A stretch of 64,000 nt of DNA from Eledone cirrhosa (taxonomy: Eukaryota), in NCBI GenBank assembly GCA_964016885.1, contig OZ024761.1, positions 28,334,001 through 28,398,000 on the forward strand. The letters are read 5' to 3'. The notes under the pieces were generated by a model that saw only the letters and a list, made by a program, of their open reading frames with translations, was not told the origin of the DNA and ran no database searches. Each line of letters begins with the position of its first letter. Within the stretch, counting starts at the first letter, position 1. The position numbers and the translations under genes are program-made. Of this stretch, positions 556 to 62,230 are shown piece by piece.

Positions 556-702
556 AAAGTTTTATTTAAAATTGTTGGGATACAACAAGTAAATATTTTA
601 TTCATCTCAAATGTTAAGATAACTCAACAACCTATCACTTAGAGCTTTCGCTTTCTCTTCTCTCTCTCTTTCTCTCTCATTTTTCTTTTTTCTCTCTCTT
701 GT

Positions 703-2322: not shown

Positions 2323-5300
2323 TCTTGGTGATAGCAGAGATATTAACAAGAACAAAACACCACCAAAAATACCATCATATATAATTAAAATAGAAAAAAA
2401 AGAGTGCTGACCTACGAAAAACCATAGGATATGTGACAATGCTCCTTACATGCCAACAAACACAAAAAGAAACCTCACTCCTCACCAGCAAAGAGTGAAA
2501 AATAAAATAGAGACGATGTTTGGTAACAGTAGAACCAGAACTCTCCAATATAAGCTGATCACCCTCAAACAAGAATTGAGAGCTGTTGGCGAAAAACGCC
2601 GATACCTGAAGAAAAGTGTTTAATAAAAGATTCAGACGAAACCAAACATCAATCTATAGAGATATGAAGGGCAAAATAATAAGTGTTACTGAGGCCCCAT
2701 CCCAGAAAGACAGATTCCCTTTGGAGCAAAATATGGGGTGAAAAGAAGAATTTCAACGAAGATGCAGTGTGACTCAGAGAAATCCGAAAGAACTATTGCT
2801 CCTACACTACAACAAAAACATACGAAATAAGTGAGGCTACCCTTGAGACTGTGCTAGGAAAACTCCAAGACAAGAAAACACCAGGAAGAGACATGATTGT
2901 CAGCTACTGGTACAAAAAACTGATATTCTATCGGAGGTATCTTACTGACCTCTACCAACAAGTTCTTAAGGGAGATACCGGAATGGTTGACATTAGCACA
3001 AACATTACTGGTCCCCAAGAACAAAGACACCCACTTGGCAAAAAACTACCGACCCATTGCATGCCAGAACCTGATTTATAAGATGTATACAGCCTGCCTG
3101 AACCTATTCCTCCAAGATCACTGTGAAAATAATAACATCATCACAGATGAACAAGCAGCTGGAAAGAAAGGGGTTTGGGGATGTGCTGAACAACTCCTAA
3201 TCAACAAAACTGCGATGTCGGAGGTGCGACAACTTAGGAGGAATATGACTACAGTCTGGCTGGACTACAGGAAAGCTTTTGATTCTGTTCCTCACTCTTG
3301 GATGATAGAGGCCCTCCAACTGACATTATTGTCAGAGCCATAGAGAGGCTGTCTTCTTCTTGGGCTACTATCCTAAGGTTAAAGACAGAGAGGGAGGACT
3401 CTATTTTCACTGATAAAATAAAATATTGCAGGGGTATATTTCAGGGGGACAGTCTCTCTGTGATATTATTCATCTTGTCATTAAACCCCTTGTCCTTTCT
3501 GCTCAAGAAATGTGAGGGATACATCATTGGCTCACAGGAGGACAGAAATACGAACCTAACCCATAATTTCTTTGTGGACGATCTGAAACTCTATGCCAAG
3601 AACATGGATGGGATGAAGAAAAATCTTGACCTGGTTACAACGTTCTCAAAGGATATAGGAATGGAGTTTGGCCAAGATAAATGGTCATACATGACTGTAA
3701 AGCAGGGAAAAACAACAACCCAATCTAGCAACATTGTCATCAAGGGCCTAACTGTTTCACCGATATCTGATGAGGACTGCTACAGATCCCTGGGGATAGA
3801 TGAGAACATATCCTATAATGGTATCTGTAATAAAGAACGCGCGACCAAGGAATACTACACCCGATTAAGAAAGATCTGCTCATCGGAACTCTCTGCACAA
3901 AACAAAACAGTGGCTCACAATGTGTTTGCTGTGCTTGTCCTAACACCAACGTTTGGAATACTCAATTGGACGATAGACGAAATCCGAGCAGTTGATGTTG
4001 GAACTCAAAAAATACTGAACAACACCAGAAACTTCCACATCAACAGTGACATAGACCGCCTTTACTTGAAACGTAAGCAGGGAGGCAGAGGCGTAACATC
4101 AGTCCAGACAACATTTGAATGTCGCATCATATCTCTCCGACAACATCTACGAACCTTGAAGCGTAGGAGCCCGTTTCTGGAGCAAGTCTATCTGCATGAA
4201 ACAGATAAGATCATGAGAGTTGGGAAGGAATTCCTCGAGAGATATTCCCTGTGTGATAATCAAAAACTCACACCCAGGGATGTCGCTCAGCAGTATCGCA
4301 GTGAATCCATGGATGAAAAACTGCATGCCTATCAGCAAAAATGATATGATGCCAGGAAGCTCCAGAGTGAGAGCAATATAGATAAGGAAAGTAGTCTATC
4401 TTGGACCAACAACCGCTATATTGGCTCCCACTTTGAAGGATACGCTTTTGCAATCCAGGAACAGGAGATTAGCAGCAAATACCTGATTCACAAAAGAGAT
4501 AGAGATGCAGGCAAAACACCTAGATGTGATAACAAGTGCAGACTCTGCAGAACTAACATCGAGGATATCACCCATGTCATCAGCAGCTGTCCAAAGATGT
4601 CATCGCAGTACTATCTACCTATGAGGCATGATGTAGTGGCCAAAACAATGTACAATGCAGTTCGTAAAAAAGATAGCCCCGATAATAAACACATTAAAAG
4701 CTACAGCAATATGGAAGACATCCATGTACATAATATGAAAGAGTACTGGTGGAATGTTCCAGTAAAAACCCCAATAAAATGCAGGCATAACAGACCAGAT
4801 ATTATGATATGGGACAGGGAGAAGAACGCATGCACAGTAGTGGAAATTAGCTGCCCAGCAGATGCCAATATAATATCAAAGATTAGTGAAAAGGAGAACA
4901 TTTATGCAGAACTGATGAGAAATCTGCAGATATTCCACCCTGATTACACCTTCAGATTTATGCCTGTGATTATTGGGGCACTGGGGTATGTTAGTAACTG
5001 CCTCAATACAAATCTTGAGAAGCTAGGCTTCACAGGAACAGAAAGAACACAACTAATTAGGAAATTACAAGTACAATCCATTAATGGAACAGTAAAAATA
5101 TGTAAAACATTCCAAAAATGTTGCATCTAATAACTGCATATACACATGTACAGATACAAAGCATATACACATGCACACATACAACTCAAAACATCCACAC
5201 ATACAATAACATCCATATCTACACATGCATGCATACATACATATCTTCCTAGTTGATGTTGTGTAAATTCCAATGAGAGAGTCTTGTGTCTATGTTAGAA

Positions 5301-5352
5301 ACCGACTCTCTCTATATTGGTAAAACTTTGTGAAATTATAAAACCAGAAGAA
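2323..5352 (+). mobile_element. 5'-truncated RLE-type non-LTR retrotransposon (R4/Dong-like)
   Basis: RT motifs NYRPIAC, WLDYRKAFDSVPH, GIFQGDSLS, FVDDLKLY; CCHC knuckle CRLC..EDITHVISSC; endonuclease motifs RHD, RPDI, VEISCP; 3'UTR hairpin; flanked by (CATA)n. Confidence 0.9.
2851..5130 (+). pseudogene. Frameshifted RT + Zn knuckle + restriction-like endonuclease ORF
   Basis: Split over ORFs 2851-3081, 2987-3343, 3298-4344 and 4597-5130. Confidence 0.9.
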
Positions 5353-5392
5353 CATACATACGTAAATACATACATACATACATACATACATA

Positions 5393-6178
5393 AAAACCAC
5401 TCAAAAAGCCTGGCATGGAGTTCCGACAGGTTAATGACATCACACCTTGAGGGATATCTCTATGCAATACAGGAACAAGAGCTCCCTACCAAATATCTGC
5501 TGCACAAAAGGGGAGGGCCATCAGCTGACAATAAATGTAAAACAAAGATCGAGGATGTAAGCCACATTGTTGCCAGCTGCGAAAGAATGTCATCTCGCTA
5601 CTACCTCCCCATGAGACACGGTGGGATAGCTAAAAGCATCTGGAACGCACTTCGGAAAACAAAATGAAAAACAAACGAGGAAGAATTTTTGAGACAGATG
5701 GCACTAAGGAATACTGGTGGAACCTGAAAATAAAAACTGCCACCAAATTAAAGCTCAACCAGCCTGATATTGTTGTTTGGGACCACACATTGAAAACGTG
5801 TTCTGTTGTGGAGATCAGCTGCCCACTTGATGTAAACGTTGTCAGAAAAATACAGGGGAAGGAGGACATCTTAGGACCATTGATGAGGAGTTTACAAATC
5901 CAGTATCCAAGATATACCTTTAGCTTCATACCCATCATTATTGGAGCTACGGGTTATATACCAACCCGCTTGGACCAGAGTATGACTGAACTTGGATTTG
6001 CGGACAAAGAGCGCAGCTCCCTAATTCATAGTCTACAAATGGCTACGATAGCTGGCACCTTCAAAATTTGCAAAACATTCTTGCGATTCAAGGGATGACA
6101 ATTTCTTTTCTTTTACAACCTTGCCACCAGGAAGGTGGCGGTCAAAAAAATATAGTCGAAATTAAGAGAAAGAGATAA
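5393..6178 (+). mobile_element. Second, divergent 5'-truncated RLE retrotransposon
   Basis: ORFs 5317-5667 and 5664-6098 carry HLEGYLYAIQEQE, YYLPMRH, EYWWN, QPDIVVWD, VEISCP; ends in (CATA)n. Confidence 0.88.
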
Positions 6179-6893: not shown

Positions 6894-7596
6894 CATAGAT
6901 ACACAAACACACACATATATGCATATATATATATATAAACACGTGTGTGCAGTTTAAATGGTAAAAAAAATATATATATATCGATATAGACACAAATACT
7001 GTATCACTTGGATACGATACATTCCTGTGATGATATTGGCCTTTTAAAAGTCCAACCAGTCACGCCATCTGTTGTGCTTCCACAATTTAATGGTTAACAC
7101 ACTGCCCTTTATACTCGATATTTTATAATGCCTGACAGACTATACACAAGCTTTCTTCTCAGTTTCTTGTGGTGTTTGTTCTGTGTATTTGTGTTCCATG
7201 TCGTGAGTTCTTGGGTAAGATATTTAATATGTAAATCAGTTGAACAGCACCACTGAGGCCTGGGGTGTCTTTAGCAGAGTTCAGTTGCAGGAAAACAAAC
7301 TAGAACTCAAGTTTGGGGATATATTCTGCCATTTTTTTTTATCAGATTCGGGCACAATGAAAGATAAAAGGTCAGGGATGCAGTCCTTTCCTTCATGATT
7401 ATTATTTGGGGTTATTTAAATTATTTTATCCCTTTTTATAATGAGGGAGAACAAGAGAGAGAGAGAGAGATGACCCATATTATTCCTGATGTCGGTGTAT
7501 GGGTGCCACTGTGGCTTATAGTATGTCTTGAACATATAAAACCTGGTGGAGCCCATCCCACTCAATGTCTGATCACAGCCTAATTATTGCAAAGAA

Positions 7597-7830
7597 TGAG
7601 AGAGTGAGGGTGGGAGTGAGAGAGTGAAAGTGGGAGAGAGAGTGAGAGTGGGAGAGAGAGTGAGAGTGGGCACGAGAGTGAGAGTGGGAGTGAGAGAGTG
7701 AAAGTGGGAGTGAGAGAGTGAAAGTGGGAGAGAGAGTGAGAGTGGGCACGAGAGTGAGAGTGGGAGTGAGAGAGTGAGGGTGGGAGTGAGAGCGTGAGAG
7801 TGGGAGAGAGAGAGAGAGTGAGAGTGTGAG
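7597..7830. repeat. (GAGTGR/GAGAGT)n hexamer repeat
   Basis: Direct inspection. Confidence 0.9.
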
Positions 7831-11903: not shown

Positions 11904-12112
11904 AACGAAAGAAATGTGGTAAGGAACCAGGTGGACCATAATGCACCAAAGTACTCAATACTTAGGGTAGTAGAGTGGGTAATAGGAGCGAGTAGGACCC
12001 CGACGGCTGAGCTCAAGCCGTTTCAACAGCTAATTCTGGACTAAAAATTTTAGTCCAGAATTAGCCGTCGAAACGGCTTGAGCTCAGCCGTCGGGGTCCT
12101 ACTCGTTCCTAT
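11904..12112. mobile_element. Palindromic micro-element, family C (HHR 3' half plus tail)
   Basis: Inverted repeat 11982-12112 centred near 12047; GAAACGGCT-TGAGCTC-AGCCGTC. Homologs at 26176, 26362 and 43608. Confidence 0.7.
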
Positions 12113-12336: not shown

Positions 12337-12900
12337 ATACTAACTATGGACAATAGGGTTTGCCAGACTCAATTTAAGAATAAATCAAGAAAATAAAATA
12401 CAAACCAGAATTGTGGTAACTACCGATCACTTATACAGCGTTTGGCTATGCTGTTTCGGAAATTAATTGTGAAGAGACTATTTTGAGTTTCTAACTCAAT
12501 ATATACCTTTGATATATTCGGCTCCGTTAATTTGTCGAGCTAATTTAAATGTCGAGTAAACTTGGCTGGTATTTTTAGTGGTGTGAGTTTGAGAGACATG
12601 CTAAGTTCTAATACCATGTGTGTTATTACATATACGTGCACTATTCAGCTGTCTGATTTTCTTAGAAGTGAGGAGTTTACTAATTTTCACCCACTGACGA
12701 GAAAGAATTTGTAATTCTCTTCACAATTAATTTGCGAAACAGCATAGCCAAACGCTGTATGGGTGATCGGTAGTTACCACAATTCCGCTTTGTATTTATT
12801 TTCTTGATTTATTCTTAAATTGAGTCTGGCAAACCCTATTGTCCATAGTTAGTATTTTTTCACCTTAGCGAACCTGGTCCCTTATGATTTGAACAGATAT
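12337..12900. mobile_element. Inverted-repeat PLE-like remnant
   Basis: Arms 12337-12477 and 12716-12855; contains a complete HHR. Confidence 0.72.
12687..12766 (+). ncRNA. Complete type I hammerhead ribozyme
   Basis: TCACCCA-CTGACGA-[imperfect stem II]-GAAA-CAGC...GCTG-TA-TGGGTGA. Confidence 0.85.
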
Positions 12901-12978: not shown

Positions 12979-13430
12979 TATGCAAAAGTTTTATTTAAAA
13001 TGTTGGGTTACAACGAGTAAATATTTTATAACTGATATAAAAGCACTCAACAGGTTTTGGAGTATTTTACAATATTAAACAAATGGAAATTACATTTATA
13101 AAACCATATTTATTTCATTATATATATTTCAGGGATATCATATTAAAAATATGGTATGCCCTCTTCAGACAAAATACAATATATAGACAGTTTTATAAAT
13201 AAATTTGACATACCTTAGAGTTTACAACTTCCATTTCAAAAGTTGTTACCGTAACAACTTTTTAAATGGAAGTTGTAAACTCTAAGGTATGTCAAATTTA
13301 TTTATAAAACTGTCTATATATTGTATTTTGTCTGAAGAGGGCATACCATATTTTTAATATGATATCCCTGAAATATATATAATGAAATAAATATGGTTTT
13401 ATAAATGTAATTTCCATTTGTTTAATATCG
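12979..13430. mobile_element. Family A palindromic element with two HHRs
   Basis: Near-perfect palindrome 13072-13428 centred at 13250; HHR at 13324-13389(+) and 13111-13176(-); tail on the left arm only. Confidence 0.8.
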
Positions 13431-13606: not shown

Positions 13607-13740
13607 ATATTGTTATACTTTGGGAGGGTCATGTTGCCAATAATTATTGGCAACATGACCCTCCCAAAGTATAACAATATCGGTTTCAACACACGATTTC
13701 AGATAAAGAATCTTGCTAAACAAATTCAGAAACGAAATAT
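13607..13740. mobile_element. Palindromic micro-element (truncated form of 61294-61746)
   Basis: Perfect 74-bp palindrome 13607-13680 plus a one-sided tail nearly identical to 61690-61746. Confidence 0.8.
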
Positions 13741-14962: not shown

Positions 14963-15405
<443 letters not shown>

Positions 15406-17740: not shown

Positions 17741-18187
17741 TCACGATACATTAACGGAGCCATAGACTCTCGTCATTCTCTGTAAATAATGTGCTCAAAG
17801 GAGAGGAAATCCTGAGCTCTTTAAAATACAATATGTTGAAAAGGTAACACACTAGAGAGAGATACAGTGCGCTATCAATAAAACAGGGAAAAACCACCAG
17901 TGTATGGAATCTATAACCTATGAAAGGCAGATAATTAAAAATATAAATTAAAGCGTAAATAAATACCTCTATAACTATATAACACACGTACAAATCCAAA
18001 GTGATCTGTTTCGCCAGTAAGTTGTTGACAGAAATGAAATAACCCAGGTTCATCAGCGTGTATATGTATATATATAGTAATAATAATATAGTAATCATAT
18101 AGTAATAATAATAAATTTGAAGACTAAAATCCAAAGAGAGCTCCATAAGGATAAATATATATCAAATATATAAGAATCGTAGAGCAA

Positions 18188-18323
18188 ATATTTATTAAAA
18201 TAACAGATTAAAGTTTAAGCAAAGAATCGCTGCTTTCACCCTTAACGGGATTTTCAGAAGATCCTGTTAAGGACGAAACCAGTGATTCTTACTTAAACTT
18301 TAATCTGTTATTTTAATAAATAT
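18188..18323. mobile_element. Palindromic HHR remnant
   Basis: Inverted repeat centred at 18256 on TTC-A-GAA; CAGAAGA-TCCTGTTAAGGAC-GAAAC. Confidence 0.6.
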
Positions 18324-18567: not shown

Positions 18568-18748
18568 AGAGCTTCTACAGGACTAGAACTGTTTCATTCG
18601 TGAGAAATCATCAGGAAGCCCTGATGATTTCTCACGAATGAAACAGTTCTAGTCCTGTAGAAGCTCTTCTATATTAAAACTTTTATACTCCGCTATGTAT
18701 TGAGTAACTTACTTACTGTGGTTACCTCCGATTCAACCCGGAATAACT
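18568..18748. mobile_element. Family B palindromic HHR element
   Basis: Arms 18568-18615 and 18620-18667; CTGATGA-TTTCTCACGAAT-GAAACAGTTCTA; tail on the right. Confidence 0.75.
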
Positions 18749-19161
18749 TATATATATATACATATATATATAGAAATTACATGAATCAAAGTTCTGTTTA
18801 AATCATTTATTTGCTTACAATTGTTTCTTCCAAACCGAGGTTTGGAGTCTTCGGAGCAATTATTCAGTGATTTTTTACATACTTGACCTCCTTTCCAACA
18901 CAAGAGACATATAGAAACATATGTATATATTGACGCACAGTGGGTTGACATCCATTATAATAATATAGCATGGCAATTTACATACAAAGATTACACTCAT
19001 ATTAAAGGACAAAATTAAAGTTAAAATTAAAATTAAAATTAAAATTAAAATTAAAATTAAAATTAAAACTGCCAATGTTTTATTTTAATTTTAACTTTAA
19101 TTTTGTCCTTTAATATGACTGTAATCTTTGTATGTAAATTGCCATGCTATATTATTATAAT

Positions 19162-19510
19162 GGAGGCACATGGCTTTGTGGTTAGAGCATTGGCCTTGCA
19201 ATCGAAAGGTTGTGAGTTCAATTCTCAGACCGGGTGATGTGTTGTTTCCTTGAGCAAGACACTTTATTTCACATTGCTCCAGTTTACTCAGCTGTAGAAA
19301 TGAGATGATAGGGACTGGGGTCCCTATCATTCCACTGCAAAGTGGTCGTGTAGGTGCCACGGCAAAAAAGCACCCAGCCCTCACTGTAAATGAGGTTGGT
19401 GTTAGGAAGGGCATCCAGCTGTAGAAATCAAGCCAGAATCAGTTCCCGTCCCACCCTTGCAAGCAGGGAAAAGCGGACGTAAAATGATGATGATGATGAT
19501 GATGATGATG
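19162..19510 (+). mobile_element. CORE-SINE family 1
   Basis: Full-length copy with (GAT)n tail. Confidence 0.88.
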
Positions 19511-19600
19511 TTAACCCACTGTGCATCAATATATACATATGTTTCTATATGTCTCTTGTGTTGGAAAGGAGGTCAAGTATGTAAAAAATCACTGAATAAT

Positions 19601-19647
19601 TGCTCCGAAGACTCCAAACCTCGGTTTGGAAGAAACAATTGTAAGCA
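19601..19647 (+). ncRNA. Minimal hammerhead, U4C core variant (mirror at 18812-18858 on minus)
   Basis: TGCT-CCGAAGA-CTCCAAAC-CTCG-GTTTGGAA-GAAA-CAATTG-TA-AGCA. Confidence 0.8.
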
Positions 19648-19917
19648 GATAAATGATTTAAACAGAACTTTGATTCATGTAATTTCTATATAACTGCTCT
19701 GTAAAACAACTGATGTTATTACATTGAGCAATTTATCTTACTGGTAATAAGATAGTAATAAATTACTGTCTTTCCCTATTTAGGGTTTAAAATATATATA
19801 ACTATAAAAGGTTTTAGTATATACATAACCATAAATAGTATCCTTAATACATATATATATAAACGGAAAAAATGAAACAAAATTTCATTTCCCACTCTTA
19901 GTACGGCTGTTACTTAA

Positions 19918-20037: not shown

Positions 20038-20146
20038 ATATATAATATATAAACATATATATACATTTATACTCTGCTATGTATTGAGTACCTTACTGTG
20101 GTTACCCCTGATTGAACCCGGAATAAACATATATATATATATATAT

Positions 20147-20604: not shown

Positions 20605-22013
<1,409 letters not shown>

Positions 22014-25502: not shown

Positions 25503-25695
25503 AGTTTTAATATAGATGAGATTCTACAGGACTAGAACTGTTTCATTCATTAGAAATCATCAGGATTCCTGATGATTTCTAATGAATGAAACAGTTCTAG
25601 TCCTGTAGAATCTCATCTATATTAAAACTGTTATACTCTGCTATGTATTGAGTACCTTACTTACTGTGGTTACCTCCGATTCAACCCGGAATAAC

Positions 25696-26273: not shown

Positions 26274-26368
<95 letters not shown>

Positions 26369-26568
26369 GTGGTAAGGAACCAGGTGGACCATAACGCACC
26401 AAAGTACTCAATACTTAGGGTAGTAGAGTGGGTAATAGGAGTAAGTAAGACCCCGACGGCTGAGCTCAAGCCGTTTCGACGGCTAATTCTGTACAGAATT
26501 ACCCACTCTACTACCCTAAGTATTGAGTACTTTGGTGCGTTATGGTCCACCTGGTTCCTTACCACTTT

Positions 26569-26575
<7 letters not shown>
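26176..26575. mobile_element. Two family C elements separated by (GA)n
   Basis: 26176-26244 and 26362-26575, the latter with tails on both sides. Confidence 0.72.
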
Positions 26576-26629
<54 letters not shown>

Positions 26630-26834
26630 TTATATACATCTGTTTCTGTATGAAGTAGTAAATTGGCAGAGTTGTTATGTTAGAAAGTTGGATAGAATGC
26701 TTTAATGGTAGTGTTCGTTTCGACTCCCTATAGCTTGTGACAAGACCCCGCTTAAAAACGTGTTTTTGAAAATTCTGCCCCCAAGACCCTCTTACGAATA
26801 GCTAGGCGAAGAAGACCAAAAATTAGTTATTCAA

Positions 26835-27320
26835 ATAACTACTTCAGGATTAGAACTATTTCATTTGAACTGAATAAATTAGTACAGAAAATACATTATA
26901 TATTATATATATAGAGAGAGAGATGATTCTCATAGGACTAGAAATGTTTCATTTTAAATCAATAGATCAGTAAAGAAAATACATTATATATTTTATATAT
27001 AAATGACACAAACAGGACTAGAACTGTTTCATTTGAAATCAATAGATTAATAAAGAAACTACATTATATATTTTATATACAAATGACTCCAGCAGGACTA
27101 GAACTGTTTCATTTGAAATCAATAGTTCAGTAAAGAAACTATTTTATATATAAATGACTCTGACAGGACTAGAAATGTTTCATTTGAAATCAATAGATTA
27201 GTAAAGAATCTACATTATATATTTTATGTATAAATGACTCCTACATGACTAGAAATGTTTCATTTCAAATCAAAAGATTAGTAAAGAAAGTACATTATAT
27301 ATTTCATATTCATTTTGAAT
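26835..27320 (-). repeat. About 80-bp tandem array of family B HHR-derived units
   Basis: GGACTA at 26935, 27015, 27095, 27166 and TGACTA at 27246. Confidence 0.85.
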
Positions 27321-31675: not shown

Positions 31676-31899
31676 ATTGCTGGACAGATTTTACAGACAT
31701 AACCAACTGGCAGCAAGAGACCCAGTGGTAGACCCTGCGTAAGATGGTTGAATGACATCCTTGAACTCGACAGGTCTCACTTGGGGTTCCAGCTGGATCA
31801 ATTGGAGACGGTTGCATCTCACAGGACTCGCAGGAAGGAGTGTTTGAGCACCTTGCCCCCACAACCCTCCGAGGAATAAGTAGGCAAAGAAGAAGAAAA
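31676..31899 (+). mobile_element. RTE LINE 3' end
   Basis: KRPSGRPCVRWLNDI..LPPQPSEE stop; (GAA)n tail. Confidence 0.65.
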
Positions 31900-32165
31900 A
31901 TTAGTAGAGAAAATACATCATATATTTATATAGAAATGACTCCCATAGGACTAGTCCTGTTTCATTTGAAATCAATAGATTAGTAAAGAAAGTAAATCAT
32001 ATATTTCATATATGAAATGACTTCAACAGGACTAGAACTGTTTCATTTGAAATCAATAGATTAGTAAAGAAAGTAAATCATATATTTCATAAATGAAATA
32101 ACTTCTACAGGACTAGAACTGTTTCATTTGAACTCAAGGAATTAGTAGACAAAGTACATTGTATA
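31900..32165 (-). repeat. About 81-bp tandem array, same unit as 26835-27320
   Basis: GGACTAG at 31948, 32029 and 32110. Confidence 0.85.
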
Positions 32166-32311
32166 TTGGGCCATTCCATAAATTATGTGTTTTTTTCAAT
32201 TGCCTGCAATAAAAGTCAGAGGGGTGGGGATAAACACCTGCATTAACAGGTATTAAATCCCTCTCATCCTCATTCTTAGTGCAAGCTTTGAAATGTGCAG
32301 TTTATCTTAAC

Positions 32312-36560: not shown

Positions 36561-36901
36561 TCATCATCATCATCATCATTTTACGTCCGCTTTTCCCTGC
36601 TTGCAGGGGTGGGACGGGAACTGATGCTGGCTTGATTTCTACAGCTGGATGCCCTTCCTAACACCAACCTCATTTACAGTGAGTGCTGGGTGCTTTTTTT
36701 CCGTGGCATCTCCACGACCACTTTGCAGTGGAATGATAGGGACCCCAGTCCCTATCATCTCATTTCTACAGCTGAGTAAACTGGAGCAATGTGAAATAAA
36801 GTGTCTTGCTCAAGGAAACAACACATCACCTGGTCTGAGAATTGAACTCACAACCTTTCGATTGCAAGGCCAATGCTCTAACCACTAAGCCATGTGCCTC
36901 C
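36561..36901 (-). mobile_element. CORE-SINE family 1
   Basis: Full-length reverse copy. Confidence 0.88.
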
Positions 36902-36981
36902 ATATATATATAAATATTATTATCATTATTAAATTCAATATTACAATGAAGACAAAACAGAGAAATGTAAGTGTATATATA

Positions 36982-42569: not shown

Positions 42570-42984
42570 CTGTAGTTCATAGTAGAGAATTCATTCTCTT
42601 CCGTGTTACGTAAACTCTAATTTCCAGCCTATCCTGCTGATGAATACACCAGTGGGTGTGTATATAATTATACATTAGTGGTTAGTAGAATCGTAATTCT
42701 ATGTCCAGGTAAGAAATATATATTTATTTTGATATATTTATCACACTTAATTTCTGTAGTCTTATTGTCTGTATTATTCAATAACTTATAGCTTAATTTA
42801 ATATTGTATGAATGAATTTTTTTGACCAATCTGATGACTTGGTAAAAAGAGAACAACATTTTGCATTGAGCGTAATTTATCAACAAAACACTCACACATA
42901 TAGATTTCCGAGTTGTATCAGGAAGTGGGTGGGAGGTAACCACAGTTAAAAATGGTACTCAATACATTGGTAAAGTATAGACAT

Positions 42985-43154: not shown

Positions 43155-43230
43155 AGAAATGACTGTTACAAGACTAGAAATGTTCATTCATATGAATGAA
43201 ACAGTTCTAGACCTGTAGAAGTCATTTCTA
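43155..43230. mobile_element. Family B mini-palindrome
   Basis: Centre CATATG (43189-43194) lies inside stem II. Confidence 0.65.
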
Positions 43231-43607: not shown

Positions 43608-43797
43608 ATAGGAAAAGGTATGACCCCGACGGCAGAGCTCAAGCCGTTTCGACGGCTATTTCTGAAATAGCCGTCGAAATGGCTTGAGCTCTGCCGTCGG
43701 GATCATACATTTTCCTATTACCCACTCTACTACCTTAAGTATTGAGTGCTCTGGTGCGTTATGGTCCATCTGGTTCCTTACCACAATTCCTCCGTTA
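43608..43797. mobile_element. Family C palindromic element
   Basis: Centre 43663; tail on the right. Confidence 0.72.
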
Positions 43798-44165: not shown

Positions 44166-45497
44166 TTGATTTGTCCAGGTGTATTTTTTCAACCTGTTAG
44201 TTTTTTCGTTACTTTGTGTTACGTATTGTGTGTTAGGTTTTGCCTACCACAATATTCAATTTGTCAAGCTATTTAAACGTATGTTATTACTCTAAGGACC
44301 TACCCTGATTGAGTGCTTTGCTAACTCATTCATATTGTAGGTCGAATTTGCTTGCTCACAGCCAAAGATTCGATTTAACTAAGCCTCCACTTATATATAT
44401 ATATGTATATATATATATATGTGTGTGTGTGTGTACTTAATGTGGTTCAGTTCCTGTCTACCCAATTTTATCTTCAAGACATGTGTCTAATGCTTAAAGA
44501 AACTTGTATTATTTTCTCTGTATTGTCCTGTTTACTTTCCTTTCTCTATAAACCCTTGCATTTTAGGGTCTTTATTTCCTTGCTTGTGGTGAGTAAACTG
44601 AAAACACAATTAACAGTGGCACTGATTCTGAAGAAACATCTTGGTTTGACCCTTGCACAGGATGTAGCTCACCAAACCAACACAGACCGCAAAAACTGAG
44701 AACAGATATTCATACACCTGTGCTGATAGAGTTTGGATGAGGGCGGGAAAGGCAGTGAACCATAGATGTTTAAAACCCAGCATAAAGTACCTACAGTCAT
44801 GGATGACTTAACTATTTTTCACAAGTCCTTAGATCCTATACTAGCATCAAAAGAATAAATATAATTTTGTTGTTGTTGTTTTGTTACTTTTTTTACCCTT
44901 AAAGCTTTATTAAAAGACTATAAATATAAGTTGTTGCATGTATGAAGATCTTAATATTGGATTCACGAATGACTGGGCAACTGCTATGAAACATTATGTG
45001 CTTTGTGGAGTAAAGATTTTGTGATAAACTGATGTAAATCAATAAATATCGAACTGAATGAACTTCTACTGGTATTTGTTGTTATTGCAACAATTCATAC
45101 TAGCAATACTAATCATGCTTAATGGTAGGTAGACAACAAAGTTTCTAAATGTTAAGGATTATGACATCCAACATATTTTTACTAGCAATATGATATTTAG
45201 AAGGGTTTGGTAAGTTGAAGAGTACCTAAAACATCACTTTTATGGGCCTTAAAAGTGATATATGGTTTATGTAGTTCTGACATCTCAACTCTGTTATATA
45301 TATATATATATGTGTGTATGTGTGTGAGTATATATATGATATATATATATATGTATGTTTATATGATATATATGATGATGATGATATGATATATATATAC
45401 AGATATACATATATATATATATGTATGTTTATATGATATATATGATGATGATGATATGATATATATATATACACAGATATACATATATATATATATG

Positions 45498-45687
45498 CAG
45501 GAGGTGAGCTTTATTGTAGAACAATAAAACTATGCATATATCAGATAAGTAGCACTCAACAGTTGATAGAACTAGAGTATATATAAGAAGAAATTAAAAG
45601 ATGGTTAAAAAAGTTCCATATATTGTATTATGCGTATAATAAAATATATGGAACTTTTTTAACCATCTTTTAATTTCTTCTTATATA
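45498..45687. mobile_element. Family A-related palindromic element
   Basis: Arms 45579-45630 and 45637-45687 around TGCGTA; tail on the left; homolog at 61838-62230. Confidence 0.75.
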
Positions 45688-47341: not shown

Positions 47342-47580
47342 GTATTAAGGATACTATTTATGGTTATGTATATACTAAAACTTTTTATAGTTCTATATAT
47401 TTTAAACCCTAAACAGTGGAAGTCAGTAATTTCTTACTACCTTATTACCAGTAAGATAAATAGCTCAATGTAATAACATCAGTTGTTCTACAGAGCAGTC
47501 TCCAAAGACTCCAAGCCTCGGTTTGGATGAAACAATTGTAAGCGAATAAATGCTTTGAACATAGCTTTGATTTCTGTGAA

Positions 47581-47586
<6 letters not shown>
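47342..47586. mobile_element. Inverted tail plus HHR body, same family as 18769-19850
   Basis: 47342-47499 is the reverse complement of 19693-19850; 47500-47586 matches 19603-19690. Confidence 0.78.
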
Positions 47587-48451: not shown

Positions 48452-48848
48452 GGGCGGTGGATTGGCAGTATCGGTAGAGGGTCGGACACCATGCTTTGAC
48501 GTATATAGTTATGGCCCTTGCCATTCTGAGTTCAAATCCCGCCGAGGTTAACTTTGCCTTTCATTCTTACAGGGTCGATAAAATAAAGTACCAGTAATGT
48601 ACTGGGTAATTGCTGGCCTTGTGCCAAAAGTAGAAACAATTATTTTTATGTAAAGAGCGGTGGATTGGCAGTATCGGTAGAGGGTCGGACGCCATGCTTT
48701 CCAGCATAGTTACCTCCCTTTACGATCTGAGTTCAAATCCCGCCGAGGTTGACTTTGCCTTTCATCCTTACGGGGTCGATAAAATAAAGTACCAGTAATG
48801 CACTGGGATAATTGCTGGCCTTGTGCCTAAATTAGAAACAATTATTTT
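48452..48848 (+). mobile_element. Tandem pair of SINE family 2
   Basis: 48452-48647 and 48656-48848. Confidence 0.85.
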
Positions 48849-49371
48849 TATGTATTTGGTCTACAAGATTCTTGATCTGAAATTGTGTGTTGAAACATAT
48901 TGTTACATTTGGTGGTGGTCATCTTGCAAAGCCAATGGTCATTTGTGACCGAAGGAGAGCTCAACCACTAATATGACGATGCTTAGCAGTTAGGGTATGC
49001 TAGGTGGCAAATATTAGCAAGGATTTGTTTATGCTATTACTTCACTTTGATCAGAGATGTTAAAAGCTAAGTTTGTCAACTTACTAAACATCAAGTTGAA
49101 ATTCGTGAGTGTATGCCCGTGGAACATATACATATACACCAAGTTCAAACTCAAAAGAACCAAACTCCCACTATCACTGCCTCCATCTCTCCCGCTCTCC
49201 CCATCTCTCACTGCAAAGTGGGGCCCAAATGCTGGCTGGCCTGTAGCCCTAACAGACTGGCTGCTTGGTGGACAGAATAGAGAAGATGTTTCCACAGAGA
49301 ATAGTGAAGGAGAGATAGTGATTGAAAAAGTTTTGATTAAATGAAGTCATTAATACAATTTGTATAAAAAA

Positions 49372-52687: not shown

Positions 52688-52949
52688 TACTCCAGTTCTA
52701 TCAACTGTTGAGTGCTACTTATCTGTATATGCATAGTTTTATTGTTCTACAATAAAACTCATCTCCCACATATACTTATATATATATATTTATTTATTTA
52801 TATGATTTCCTCCGAACCATCCTGATGTTTTCCTCCGAATGAAACAGTTCTAGTCCTGTAGAAGCCATTTCTATATTAAATATTTATACTCTGTTATGTA
52901 TTGTGTACCTTATTTACTGTGGTTACCCTCGATTGAACCTGGGATAAAC
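52688..52949 (+). mobile_element. Solo family A-type tail (52688-52770) and family B copy (52803-52949)
   Basis: Match the reverse complement of 45498-45580 and 18620-18748, respectively. Confidence 0.7.
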
Positions 52950-55589: not shown

Positions 55590-56075
55590 GGTGGCACATG
55601 GCTTAGTGGTTAGAGCATTGGCCTTGCAATCGAAAGATTGTGAGTTCAATTCTCAGACCGGGTGATGTGTTGTTTCCTTGAGCAAGGCACTTTATTTCAC
55701 ATTGCTCCAGTTTACTCAGCTGTAGAAATGAGATGATAGGGACTGGGGTCCCTATCATTCCATTGCAAAGTGGTCGTGGAGGTGCCACAGCAAAAAAGCA
55801 CCCAGCCCACACTGTAAAGTGGACGTGTAGACGCCACGGAAAAAAAAGCACCCAGCGCACACTGTAAAGTGGACGTGGAGGTGCCACGGCAAAAAAGCAC
55901 CCAGCCCACACTGTAAAGTGGACGTGTAGGCGCCACGGAAAAAAAAGCGCCCAGCCCACACTGTAAATGAGGTTGGTGTTAGGGAGGGCATCCAGCTGTA
56001 GAAATCAAGCCAGAATCAGTTCCCGTCCCACCCTTGCAAGCAGGGAAAAGTGGAAGTAAAATGATGATGATGATG
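55590..56075 (+). mobile_element. CORE-SINE family 1 with four internal 50-bp units
   Basis: CCCAGC at 55801, 55851, 55900 and 55950. Confidence 0.88.
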
Positions 56076-58211: not shown

Positions 58212-59066
58212 ATCATCATCATCAGCACCGTTTTACGCTAGCATGGGTTAGACGGGTTGTCCTGTTGTGGGCAGTAGCCGGTCGGCTGACCATGCCTTGC
58301 TCATACGGGAACTGATTCTGGCTTGATTTCTACAGCTGGATGCCCTTCCTAACACCAACCTCATTTACAGTGAGTGCTGGGTGCTTTTTTTTTCCATGGC
58401 GCCTACACGTCCACTTTACAGTGTGGGCTGGGTGCTTTTTTGCCGTGGCCCTTACACAATCACTTTTGCAGTGTGGGCTGGGTGCTTTTTTGCCGTGGCC
58501 CTTACACAATCACTTTTGCAGTGTGGGCTGGGTGCTTTTTTGCCGTGGCACCTCCACGACCACTTTACAGTGTGGGCTGGGTGCTTTTTTGCCGTGGCAC
58601 CTCCACGACCACTTTACAGTGTGGGCTGGGTGCTTTTTTGCCATTGCACCTCCACGACCACTTTACAGTGAGTGCTGGGTTCTTTTTTTTCCGTGGCGCC
58701 TACACGTCCGCTTTACAGTGTGGGCTGGGTGCTTTTTTGCCGTGGCCCCTACACAACCACTTTTGCAGTGTGGGCTGGGTGCTTTTTTGCCGTGACACCT
58801 CCACGACCACTTTACAGTGTGGGCTGGGTGCTTTTTTGCCATTGAACCTCCACGACCACTTTACAGTGTGGGCTGGGTGCTTTTTTGCCGTTGAACCTCC
58901 ACGACCACTTTACAGTGAGTGCTGGGTGCTTTTTTTCCGTGGCACCTACACGTCCACTTTACAGTGTGGGCTGGGTGCTTTTTCGCCATGGCGCCTACAC
59001 AACCACTTTTGCAGTGAGGGCTGGGTGCTTTTTTTCCGTGGCACCTCCACCACCACTTTGCAGTGA
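58212..59066 (-). mobile_element. Headless family 1 SINE with 14 tandem 49-51-bp units
   Basis: GCTGGGT recurs about every 50 bp from 58376 to 59020. Confidence 0.85.
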
Positions 59067-60004: not shown

Positions 60005-61246
60005 CGAGAGATAGATAGATAGATAGATATATTGAGAGAACTTATAGAAATTTGTAATACAGAATAGAAAAAAATTCACATAAAGCCAATTGCTTATTGT
60101 GAAACAATCATCCCATTAAGGATTCAAATCGGGAAATAAATATAAGATGAAACACTGTACTGAGTGAATATGGAGAAATTGTCTCATCTCTTCTATTCAA
60201 AACATTGCCTGTTATCGGGTTTTTGTTCCTTATGTTTCTTTGACACATGAAAATTCTAGATATTTTACCCTGCTATTATAATCATATGGATTGGATTTAT
60301 CAACAATGATCTGTTTTATAATATGAGTGACCCCCAACTATCTTTAAATTTCCATATATATTGGGACAATAATATCGTTTTGATTTTGTGTCAGGATCCG
60401 CATGAATTAAATCATTTGTTGTGTATATCAGGTTTTAAAGGTGTTTTCTGTCAAACCTATATGTCATTTCAATACTGTCATTTTTTTTTTTATCAGCTTT
60501 ACACATCAGGGCATTTGAGAGGACAGTTTCCTGATAAGAAGACCACATGATTTGAGATAACCAATAACAGTGACATGTGAAACAAAATTGTCTTAACGCC
60601 AGCTTGCTATTTTCACAAAAATATTTCCGCTACATAATCAGATGACCAGAAAATTTTGAGTAGTGACGCAGCAAATCGCCAGGTGCATATAAATAAATAA
60701 TTATACTCTTGTGTATACATTGAATAACATTTCTTTCATTTGTGAACTGAAACCCATTTATATATACATAAATATATACACACATACATATATATATATA
60801 TAATACACCCCGTCCCACTACCTCCACCCCATCACACCACCCCTTTCGATGTAAAGTTATGTTGGTACCACAACATCCAGTCCGAAATAAATGAGGTCGT
60901 GTAGGTGTCAGAACAAAAACAAACACACATTCCATGCTGTAATGTGGCCATGTAGGTAACATGGTAAAAACCTCCCAGTCCCATACTGTAAACGTGGATG
61001 GTGTTAGGAAGGGCATCCAGCCGTAGAAAACCCGCCAGACAGTCCTATACGAGCAAGACAACCAATCTTGCCTCAAGTGGGAAAATTCCCATCCAAACCC
61101 ATGCAAGCATGCAAGATGGACGTTAAACGATGATGATATATATATACATATACACAGACATATATATATACACACACACACATACACACATTTATGCACA
61201 CATACATTTACACACACACACACACACACCCACAGACACACACACA

Positions 61247-61293
<47 letters not shown>

Positions 61294-61301
<8 letters not shown>

Positions 61302-61745
61302 ATACTTTGGGAGGGTCATGTTGCCAATAAGAAACACATGCACAGTTGCTTTCAATTCAATTTATTATAATAAATTTATAAATTTATAAATTTCCGGTTG
61401 GTTGGTTGGTTCCATAACCAGATGGTTGTTTATATATTGTCAAAGTTCTTTCGTCACACATTCTGTGACCTCTTCAGTGACTGGGGATTCTTTTCTTTGT
61501 TTTTTGTGCCTCGCCAAAGAAAAGAATCACAAGTCACTGAAGAGGTCACAGAATGTGTGACGAAAGAAATTTGACAATATATAAACAACCATTCCTAAAT
61601 TTATAAATTTATTATAATAAATTGAAGTGAAAGCAACTGGTGCATATGTTTCTTATTGGCAACATGACCCTCCCAAAGTATAACAATATCGGTTTCAACA
61701 CACGTTTTCAGATAAAGAATCTTGCTAAACAAATTCAGAAACGAA

Positions 61746-61746
<1 letters not shown>
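61294..61746. mobile_element. Palindromic element with two HHRs
   Basis: Inverted repeat 61294-61689; GTCA-CTGAAGA-G-GTCACA-GAATG-TGTGAC-GAAA-GAAA-TT-TGAC at 61533-61575(+), mirror 61439-61481(-). Confidence 0.82.
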
Positions 61747-61837: not shown

Positions 61838-62230
61838 AGGAGGTGAGTTTTATTGTAGTACAATAAAGCAATGCAGATATCGGATAAGAAGCACTCTACA
61901 GTTTGTAGGACTGGAGTATACATAATATATAAGATCAAAAGATGGTTAAATGAGTTCCATGTATTTTATTATGCACATTTCAAAAACAAATATCATCATG
62001 CAATAACATTTGTGTTTTCATCAGATAAAATAGGAGGACATGATATGAAGGTTAAAAACACTTGTTGATTTAAAACTGCACTATCCACAAGTGTTTTTAA
62101 CCTTCATATCATGTCCTCCTATTTTATCTGATGAAAACACAAATGTTATTGCATGATGATATTTGTTTTTGAAATGCGCATAATAAAATACATGGAACTC
62201 TTTTAACCATCTTTTGATCTTATATATTAT
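61838..62230. mobile_element. Family A-related palindromic element with two HHRs
   Basis: Arms 61922-62065 and 62087-62230; TATTTTAT-CTGATGA...GAAA-TGCGCA-TA-ATAAAATA at 62120-62190(+), mirror 61962-62032(-). Confidence 0.85.

Follow-up and report, generated by a model that had tools for sequence, protein, structure and literature searches.

The window, by which we mean the whole 64,000-nucleotide stretch of Eledone cirrhosa DNA analysed here, is AT-rich, animal-type DNA with a G+C content of 32.6%. A masked self-comparison of the window returned numerous short inverted repeats, 20 of which were read arm by arm: many contain hammerhead cores, most are flanked by (TA)n, and many have arms of unequal length. 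The insertion form known for endonuclease-bearing (EN+) Penelope-like elements (PLEs) is an inverted 5'-truncated copy with a one-sided tail (PMC8557442; statements on published work here and below refer to the portions of each source available to us), and the window copies have the same form. Hammerhead cores with their stems are found in families A, B, D (with one core change), E and F, mostly beside (TA)n and with at least four pairs in stem III; the core of family H is split by the fold-back centre, and no hammerhead was seen in the window copies of families C and G. The hammerheads of families A, B, D, E and F resemble the canonical full-stem-III type of the Hydra clade (File S2 of PMC8557442), and in the insertions, as in the Hydra-clade EN+ PLEs of Craig et al. 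(2021, PMC8557442), a truncated copy lies inverted, the tail is on one side, the hammerheads have a full stem III and the targets are (TA)n, although tails of that clade are given as 30-40 bp whereas those of the window measure ~65-190 nt.

A hairpin that we call H1 stands at the start of the tail in insertions of 8 window families, A-H (Table 1). An earlier note on this DNA had listed nine such hairpins, all of which lie within 1-2 bases of the places given, and had observed that the motif is not evident at 61690-61746, which was borne out. One family C insertion, at 26362-26572, is tailed on both arms.

The window also holds repeats of other kinds. A SINE-like high-copy repeat with a tRNA-like head (by eye) occupies 15084-15381, 19152-19483, 36580-36913 and 55590-56060; one copy breaks up the family D fold-back, and a 49-nt internal unit of the repeat is in tandem expansion at 58300-59065. 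At 26776-27313 and 31854-32167, a ~80-nt unit containing a portion of the family A hammerhead region is repeated in tandem. The family E fold-back at 21170-21742 contains a nested inverted duplication and an internal repeat; no ORF is found in the 370 nt upstream of its hammerhead, and the element may be non-autonomous. A broken non-LTR retrotransposon ORF, with RT and C-terminal region, spans 2378-6098, with a second partial copy of the C-terminal region at 5299-6098; this region is presumably related to that of R4/Dong elements.

Table 1. Insertions, hairpins and protein remnant in the window
Feature	Position	Strand	Remarks
Family A fold-back insertion	18571..18737	+	Hammerhead cores 18621 (+), 18614 (-); tail on right arm
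Family D fold-back insertion	18767..19850	+	Interrupted by SINE-like repeat; hammerhead 19605, one core change
Family D copy, inverted short arm and tail abutting with zero overlap	47342..47583	-	Twin-priming geometry
Broken Hydra-clade GIY-YIG endonuclease remnant, weak	60269..60470	-	HMM E 0.007-0.01 (best reversed control 0.75); tblastn E 0.015-0.045
H1, family A	18686..18706	+	C.A mismatch at first upper pair; most reads restore the pair
H1, family A, tail-only insertion	20070..20090	+	
H1, family A	25634..25654	+	Partner short arm ends 5-6 nt before R
H1, family A variant	42956..42977	-	U.G pair tops lower stem
Degenerate H1, family A	52887..52907	+	Central lower pair broken
H1, family B	13044..13064	-	
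H1, B-related tail stub (552-646)	621..646	-	Recognised only after the descriptor count
H1, family C	11952..11977	-	
H1, family C, insertion tailed on both arms	26405..26430	-	
H1, family C	26504..26529	+	
H1, family C	43723..43748	+	
H1, family D	19695..19730	+	G-C at lower pair 1, 5-bp upper stem, UU bulge
H1, family D, at abutting inverted arm/tail junction	47462..47497	-	
H1, family E	20856..20899	-	6-bp upper stem
H1, family F	45553..45579	-	
H1, family F, tail-only insertion	52688..52714	+	
H1, family F	61892..61918	-	UA bulge; absent from the earlier note's list
H1, family G	44288..44315	+	No hammerhead or partner arm seen in window
H1, family H	18139..18186	-	UC bulge in most reads; absent from the earlier note's list
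Candidate H2, inside family K element	12520..12541	+	C-G first upper pair, UC bulge; may be chance

Structure and covariation of the hairpin

The motif is composed of a lower stem, RCUC/GAGY, a 2-nt bulge on the 3' side with U as its first base, and a paired upper stem that is specific to each family. We compared 23 hairpins, 8 from window families and 15 from other hosts, the latter gathered after the bulge pattern had been noticed; the set was anchored solely on RCTC and GAG, and pairs were counted by script. Of 69 upper pairs, 64 form when the bulge is 2 nt long, compared with 26, 12, 17 and 29 for bulges of 0, 1, 3 and 4. The first upper pair is intact in every hairpin (16 U-A, 7 C-G); 21 hairpins keep the second and 20 the third, with several pair types at each; the bulge reads TT in 17 hairpins, TA in 3, TC in 2 and TG in 1, such that its first base is always U. 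The earlier note had described a kept pairing around a loop that varies in length and sequence: the pairing stands, whereas the free loop gives way to a bulged stem with an upper stem, the spacer ranging from 8 to 36 nt while the upper stem covaries.

The three central pairs of the lower stem, on which the search was anchored, are invariant by construction and show no covariation. The compensatory A-U to G-C change reported previously is real: the lowest conserved pair is A-U in 6 hairpins, G-C in 16 and mismatched in 1. The outermost Y-R pair, previously counted as part of the motif, is weak, as it is formed in just 14 of 23 hairpins and most family D reads place T opposite T there (19730 A>T in 1382/1394 and 674/680 reads of X21). 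Reads also bear on the upper stem: 18691 C>T, in 395/402 and 1240/1286 reads carrying the same species label, repairs the upper-stem C.A of family A, and the majority read bases at 18177 and 18144 give family H an extra upper pair and a TC bulge.

When the pairing partners were permuted among hairpins in 20000 trials, the observed Watson-Crick count was never reached, whether with all 23 hairpins, with the 15 non-window hairpins (43/45 pairs vs. 20.5 +/- 3.3) or with the 13 that have distinct 5' trimers, and was reached 35 times with the 8 window families by themselves; these permutations ignore relatedness, and several coral-type families are kin. The wobble asymmetry is weak (10 G.U vs. 6 A.C, or 4 vs. 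2 with the outer pair excluded). Single hairpins are moderately stable, with z from -0.5 to -2.8 among the 12 folded, so the case rests on comparison and not on energy. A full descriptor that includes the bulge and the upper stem matches 20 distinct 3' ends in the window vs. 2.9 +/- 2.0 (maximum 6) in 30 block-wise dinucleotide shuffles of the window; 17 of the 20 are tail-start hairpins, 2 share a 5' strand at 12520 in a hammerhead element, and the remaining one, at 7560-7606, looks like chance. Covariation and sequence comparison establish the hairpin structure, which to judge from sequence is a genuine cis-element that covaries and extends across a clade of known retroelements.

No conserved second stem inside the tail was supported, and tail folds vary. 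A TACTT..AAGTA stretch beside family K, considered as a compensatory variant, was rejected for want of a fold. Rfam gave 458 matches to the window at E<=1, the best 150 of which were all microsatellite-driven miRNA models below gathering score, and 5 weak matches to four H1/H2 loci, none of them relevant and none to the HIV TAR model.

Elements that carry the motif

We retrieved at least 177 host-DNA loci by RT pattern from genome and metagenome collections (the metagenome part being 118 of about 2200 stretches). This first pattern caught Poseidon, Neptune and Naiad types, without Hydra. Near the retrieved RTs lay 41 hammerhead families, 37 of which had at least 100 nt downstream and were examined, and the motif was found in 0 of these 37 Poseidon/Neptune-type families; as the expected count is low and some of the sequences may be short arms, this zero denotes absence of enrichment only. 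A look-alike at L007, ~50 nt past a shared arm, has its first upper position unpaired and was treated as chance. A Naiad origin, which had been considered in view of the TA targets and the occurrence in cephalopods, was dropped, the motif not being found downstream of Naiad-type RTs.

A search with the Hydra RT motif and protein found elements in the host DNA of 3 of 20 assemblies (G001, G009 and G020). The protein had led to 33 of the 36 loci used and the motif to 3; their 50 hammerheads fell into 15 clusters, and these were reduced to 12 families after one junction-spanning false match and one short-stem-III type were dropped and a duplicate was merged. The hairpin is present in 11 of the 12 families, which come from three other hosts (G001, G009 and G020), and is lacking in L219, represented by one copy. 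Loci L178-L181 and L212-L240 encode the MGSYDGAE/YRDDG, RWK and DKT RT motifs, a CxCX5C linker and, at the C terminus, a GIY-YIG domain, as is characteristic of the Hydra clade. The earlier note had proposed a search of PLE consensuses from other taxa, and by eye 3 of 6 published Hydra consensuses, in the parts available to us, carry the motif: exact matches with new upper stems occur in the 3' ends of Hydra-2_Amil (coral) and Hydra-2_Ajap (sea cucumber) and in the 5' end of Hydra-1_Ajap. Hydra-1_Crog has a deviant hairpin with an AG bulge and a T.T mismatch, the available 5' end of Hydra-1_Obim has no exact match, and the 3' consensus ends of Hydra-1_Amil and Hydra-1_Obim stop short of the place where the hairpin is expected. 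Sequence comparison restricts the motif to this clade. Three RT patterns and the Hydra protein found no PLE in viral contigs.

In the window, no ORF is linked to any motif-bearing family. The link of the window families to the Hydra clade, of which they appear to be members, is indirect and consists of their hammerhead style, the TA targets, the motif and a weak endonuclease remnant (Table 1); a further stretch of 31 codons similar to the Hydra N-terminal ITLKDHK region, at 45230-45320 on the minus strand, 180 nt past a family F tail, is not significant (E about 0.5). The earlier note had called the families unrelated, which is true of their flanks (0 of 28 family pairs with an alignment z>3.5); as the families appear to form one clade, however, the motif would be inherited and not convergent.

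Several hammerhead elements depart from this pattern. Families K and I and the copy at 18056 have long-stem-III hammerheads without a clear motif. Family K (12337-12855) combines a Hydra-type hammerhead, a candidate second hairpin near its 5' end and two short arms, and looks like a short internally deleted element. Family J (61298-61746, 13607-13736 and 48847-48930), with a short-stem-III hammerhead, probably belongs to another PLE clade, possibly one with a different signal; its 57-nt tail is without the motif, and the tail ends can pair (GTTTC/GAAAC). Two Poseidon-type elements (L013 2570-2720, minus strand, and L030 1635-1780) share a tail stem, TGCTACG...CGTAGCA, followed by ATGAGC, which is perhaps a clade-specific counterpart. 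Prokaryote-labelled assemblies, including G001, G002, G003 and G004, contain animal DNA rich in PLEs, with 32 Hydra matches in G001.

Two hairpins and the two ends of the element

As the earlier note had held, the position of the motif is tied to the end of the short arm: in 9 of 9 fold-back pairs measured in the window, the end of the short arm is compatible with a place 5-6 nt ahead of the R of RCTC; owing to TA ambiguity, the range of offsets is wide wherever a TA-rich element meets a TA-rich target. Two family A short arms that end early stand outside this count, 18571-18664 by ~20 nt and 43155-43229 by ~14-22 nt. Most short arms of copies from other hosts end 3-6 nt before R. In run X1, family H sequence gives way to (AT)n at both arm ends: at 18188 in 141 contigs and at 18097 in 161. 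Tail-only inserts start where short arms end, and a TAT that ends 1-6 nt before R is present in 17 of 23 long arms vs. 7.5 +/- 2.2 in shuffles.

A second bulged hairpin, H2, lies just before the ORF in all four ORF 5' ends that keep the leader (L180, L214/L222, L217 and L215), two further N-terminal matches being truncated and uninformative for H2; in three elements, 38-48 nt lie between it and the start codon. The available 5' end of Hydra-1_Ajap has both H1 and H2 (by eye). In L217 and L222, H2 follows H1 at a spacing that agrees with the 32-43 nt found between H1 and (TA)n in the other non-window families. Direct mapping of long arms to H2 covers two families: long arms of family c (L180, L259, L267) end 4-5 nt before H2, in L180 as read against its own 5' copy, and those of family a end 5-7 nt before the H2 of L215. 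H2 is absent from the stubs because it lies beyond their outer end. As short arms end before H1 and long arms before H2, the two element ends share one signal, and this geometry of both ends follows from sequence comparison. A signal shared by both ends would explain the PLE "tail".

A proposed role in positioning reverse transcription

The hairpin stands about five bases past both points at which copies end, which makes it a likely RNA handle for the start of RT; we therefore favour, as the probable reading of these sequences, that in Hydra-clade PLEs it is bound by protein and positions RT start just 5' of the stem. The earlier note had suggested a structural signal, likely for RT recognition or internal priming; covariation and position support that suggestion, which had missed the bulge, the upper stem, H2 and the limitation to one clade. 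We picture the following sequence of events: a tandem transcript would contain, between hammerhead and following ORF, H1 and H2 at a distance of ~55-70 nt; the GIY-YIG domain would nick both strands of a (TA)n target, and each nicked 3' end would anneal to UA/UAU a few bases 5' of a hairpin; the element protein would bind the bulged stem, and copying would begin ~5 nt upstream; priming before H2 would yield the long arm and priming before H1 the short arm, such that the H1-bearing stretch between the two priming points would become the "tail"; and the two inward-growing cDNAs would join head to head. The abutting arm and tail at 47342-47583 would be consistent with one RNA bearing two primers. 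Two RNAs or displacement would be required for arms that overlap, for double tails (26362-26572) and for double short arms; most fold-back arms do overlap in sequence, and simple twin priming is insufficient. Action at the RNA level, protein binding and priming are predictions of this model, as is the base triple considered below.

LINE proteins recognise 3' stem-loops, an RNA hairpin near the cDNA start serving as protein handle; in LINEs the RNA 3' end is where copying starts, and L1 is not known to have a fixed twin-priming site. The abutting family D copy resembles the products of L1 twin priming, whereas in Hydra elements, unlike in LINEs and L1, two internal sites appear to be fixed by repeated hairpins. 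An Anolis PLE studied in vitro provides a closer comparison: both target strands are cut and extended, and cDNA starts internally at two sites that bound the tail (PMC11167929). RT initiation of this Poseidon element, PAc, is internal, lies in an "AC-rich stem loop" and uses AT-rich targets (Frangieh et al. 2024, PMC11167929). As proposed for the window motif, a PAc hairpin at +119 to +150 (by eye) follows the main start at +111-118; unlike it, PAc belongs to another clade, and its printed template has, by eye, no RCUC, U-bulge and GAG (PMC11167929). In the available portions of that report, no conserved signal or repeated hairpin is proposed.

The bulge itself suggests how the protein might hold the stem. 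In all 23 hairpins a bulged pyrimidine follows a Watson-Crick pair and is followed by a G and an A-U pair, G-A-G being the search anchor. In the arginine sandwich of HIV-1 TAR, U23 caps A27-U38 and arginines contact G26 and G28 (PMC6189040); the Hydra hairpin shares with TAR and 7SK SL1 a paired purine, a bulged U, any base, and G-A-G paired to C-U-C, and differs from them in that its bulge is on the 3' strand with the helix order permuted, it has no TAR hexaloop and its function is another (PMC6189040). By this analogy, the U-first bulge before G-A-G is predicted to form a U.A-U triple and to bind arginine as in TAR and 7SK. Hydra proteins have an Arg/Lys patch before W[YF]NPP, with a mean of 3.7 Arg per 16 residues (in 115 of 120 close relatives), which falls in a low-confidence loop (pLDDT 60-69) after the thumb region of a protein model; the patch could be a nuclear signal instead. 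The best structural match of the model in the PDB is TERT, and no solved relative of the protein was found by sequence. That tandem arginine-sandwich hairpins serve as a ruler, with the Arg-rich loop gripping each bulge and both nicked strands primed five bases upstream, is a tentative elaboration for which we would claim rather less than an even chance. If true, sequence-programmed internal twin priming would yield tail and fold-back in one step, and the hairpin would be a portable RNA handle for RT start.

It is possible, though we think it somewhat unlikely, that the hairpin instead directs cutting, of either RNA or DNA. Were the RNA cut ~5 nt 5' of each stem, by a host nuclease or the element complex, RT would start at ordinary 3' ends, tail-only copies being the fragment between cuts. 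Because short arms end at the place where tail-only inserts begin, cutting of RNA or DNA there stays in contention; these inserts and the L180 5' junction start at or just before H1, and in Anolis the RT start sites coincide with ends of RNA-seq reads (PMC11167929). A cDNA that ran into the second primer would stop there too, however, the enrichment of TAT at this place agrees with annealing to a TA target, and the Anolis start in vitro is internal on uncut RNA and independent of hammerhead cleavage (PMC11167929), so that we judge an RNA cut unlikely.

Cutting of DNA would have the GIY-YIG endonuclease recognise the hairpin, extruded or single-stranded, in cDNA or in an existing copy, cut 5 nt away and trim one arm. 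Such a role would agree with the need of the D. virilis Penelope endonuclease for the tail in recognition, as summarised in PMC11167929, and with the attribution of the tail to endonuclease resolution by Craig et al. (PMC8557442), and the wobble asymmetry is compatible with RNA or DNA. The variable spacer and covarying upper stem, however, exclude a duplex site, and H2 is absent from the long-arm stubs yet sets their end, for which a tandem transcript is the simplest account; we regard a DNA signal as quite doubtful.

A role of the hairpins in the 5' leader (translation control, packaging or hammerhead folding), with RT stalling or release as a side effect, seems to us very improbable: the place of H2 shortly before the start codon and the finding that the Anolis hammerhead needs protein to cleave (PMC11167929) would suit it, but arm ends adjoin target DNA and are cDNA start points rather than stall points, and the 5-6 nt spacing is fixed across four hosts. 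Common ancestry or chance without present function is scarcely credible, for although the carriers all appear to be one clade and single hairpins are of limited stability, pairing, bulge and spacing persist across hosts while the window flanks do not align, and descriptor matches far exceed those of shuffled sequence.

If the hairpin is the RNA handle that we favour, it bears on a standing question, the reason for the one-sided tail and inverted arms of PLEs, which has been posed since the tail was first described. In the portions of the PLE literature available to us (including PMC4209133, PMC8557442, PMC2377424, PMC3846280, PMC6765202 and bioRxiv 10.64898/2026.07.22.740005) we found no description of the motif, which apparently is undescribed so far, though older work or Repbase notes could mention it, and no cis-signal for a PLE reverse transcriptase is defined in them; the main text of Craig et al. 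(2021, PMC8557442) nowhere uses the word "hairpin", and the tail is ascribed there to endonuclease action. The motif offers a precise, mutable element, present twice, from whose spacing both ends can be predicted; it also provides a marker, readable from DNA alone, for Hydra-clade stubs without any ORF, a comparison point for the positioning of telomerase-related RTs on RNA and, if portable, a means to set the internal start site for RNA-templated insertion.

Two minor arrangements were seen beside H1 in other hosts. In L258, a short ACTC-ATA-TT-GAGT lies ~35 nt before H1, and the available Hydra-1_Amil consensus also has TTGAGT there. In L252 (1500-1620), two H1 hairpins of sister subfamilies stand in tandem, 96 nt apart, which suggests a template jump between related RNAs.
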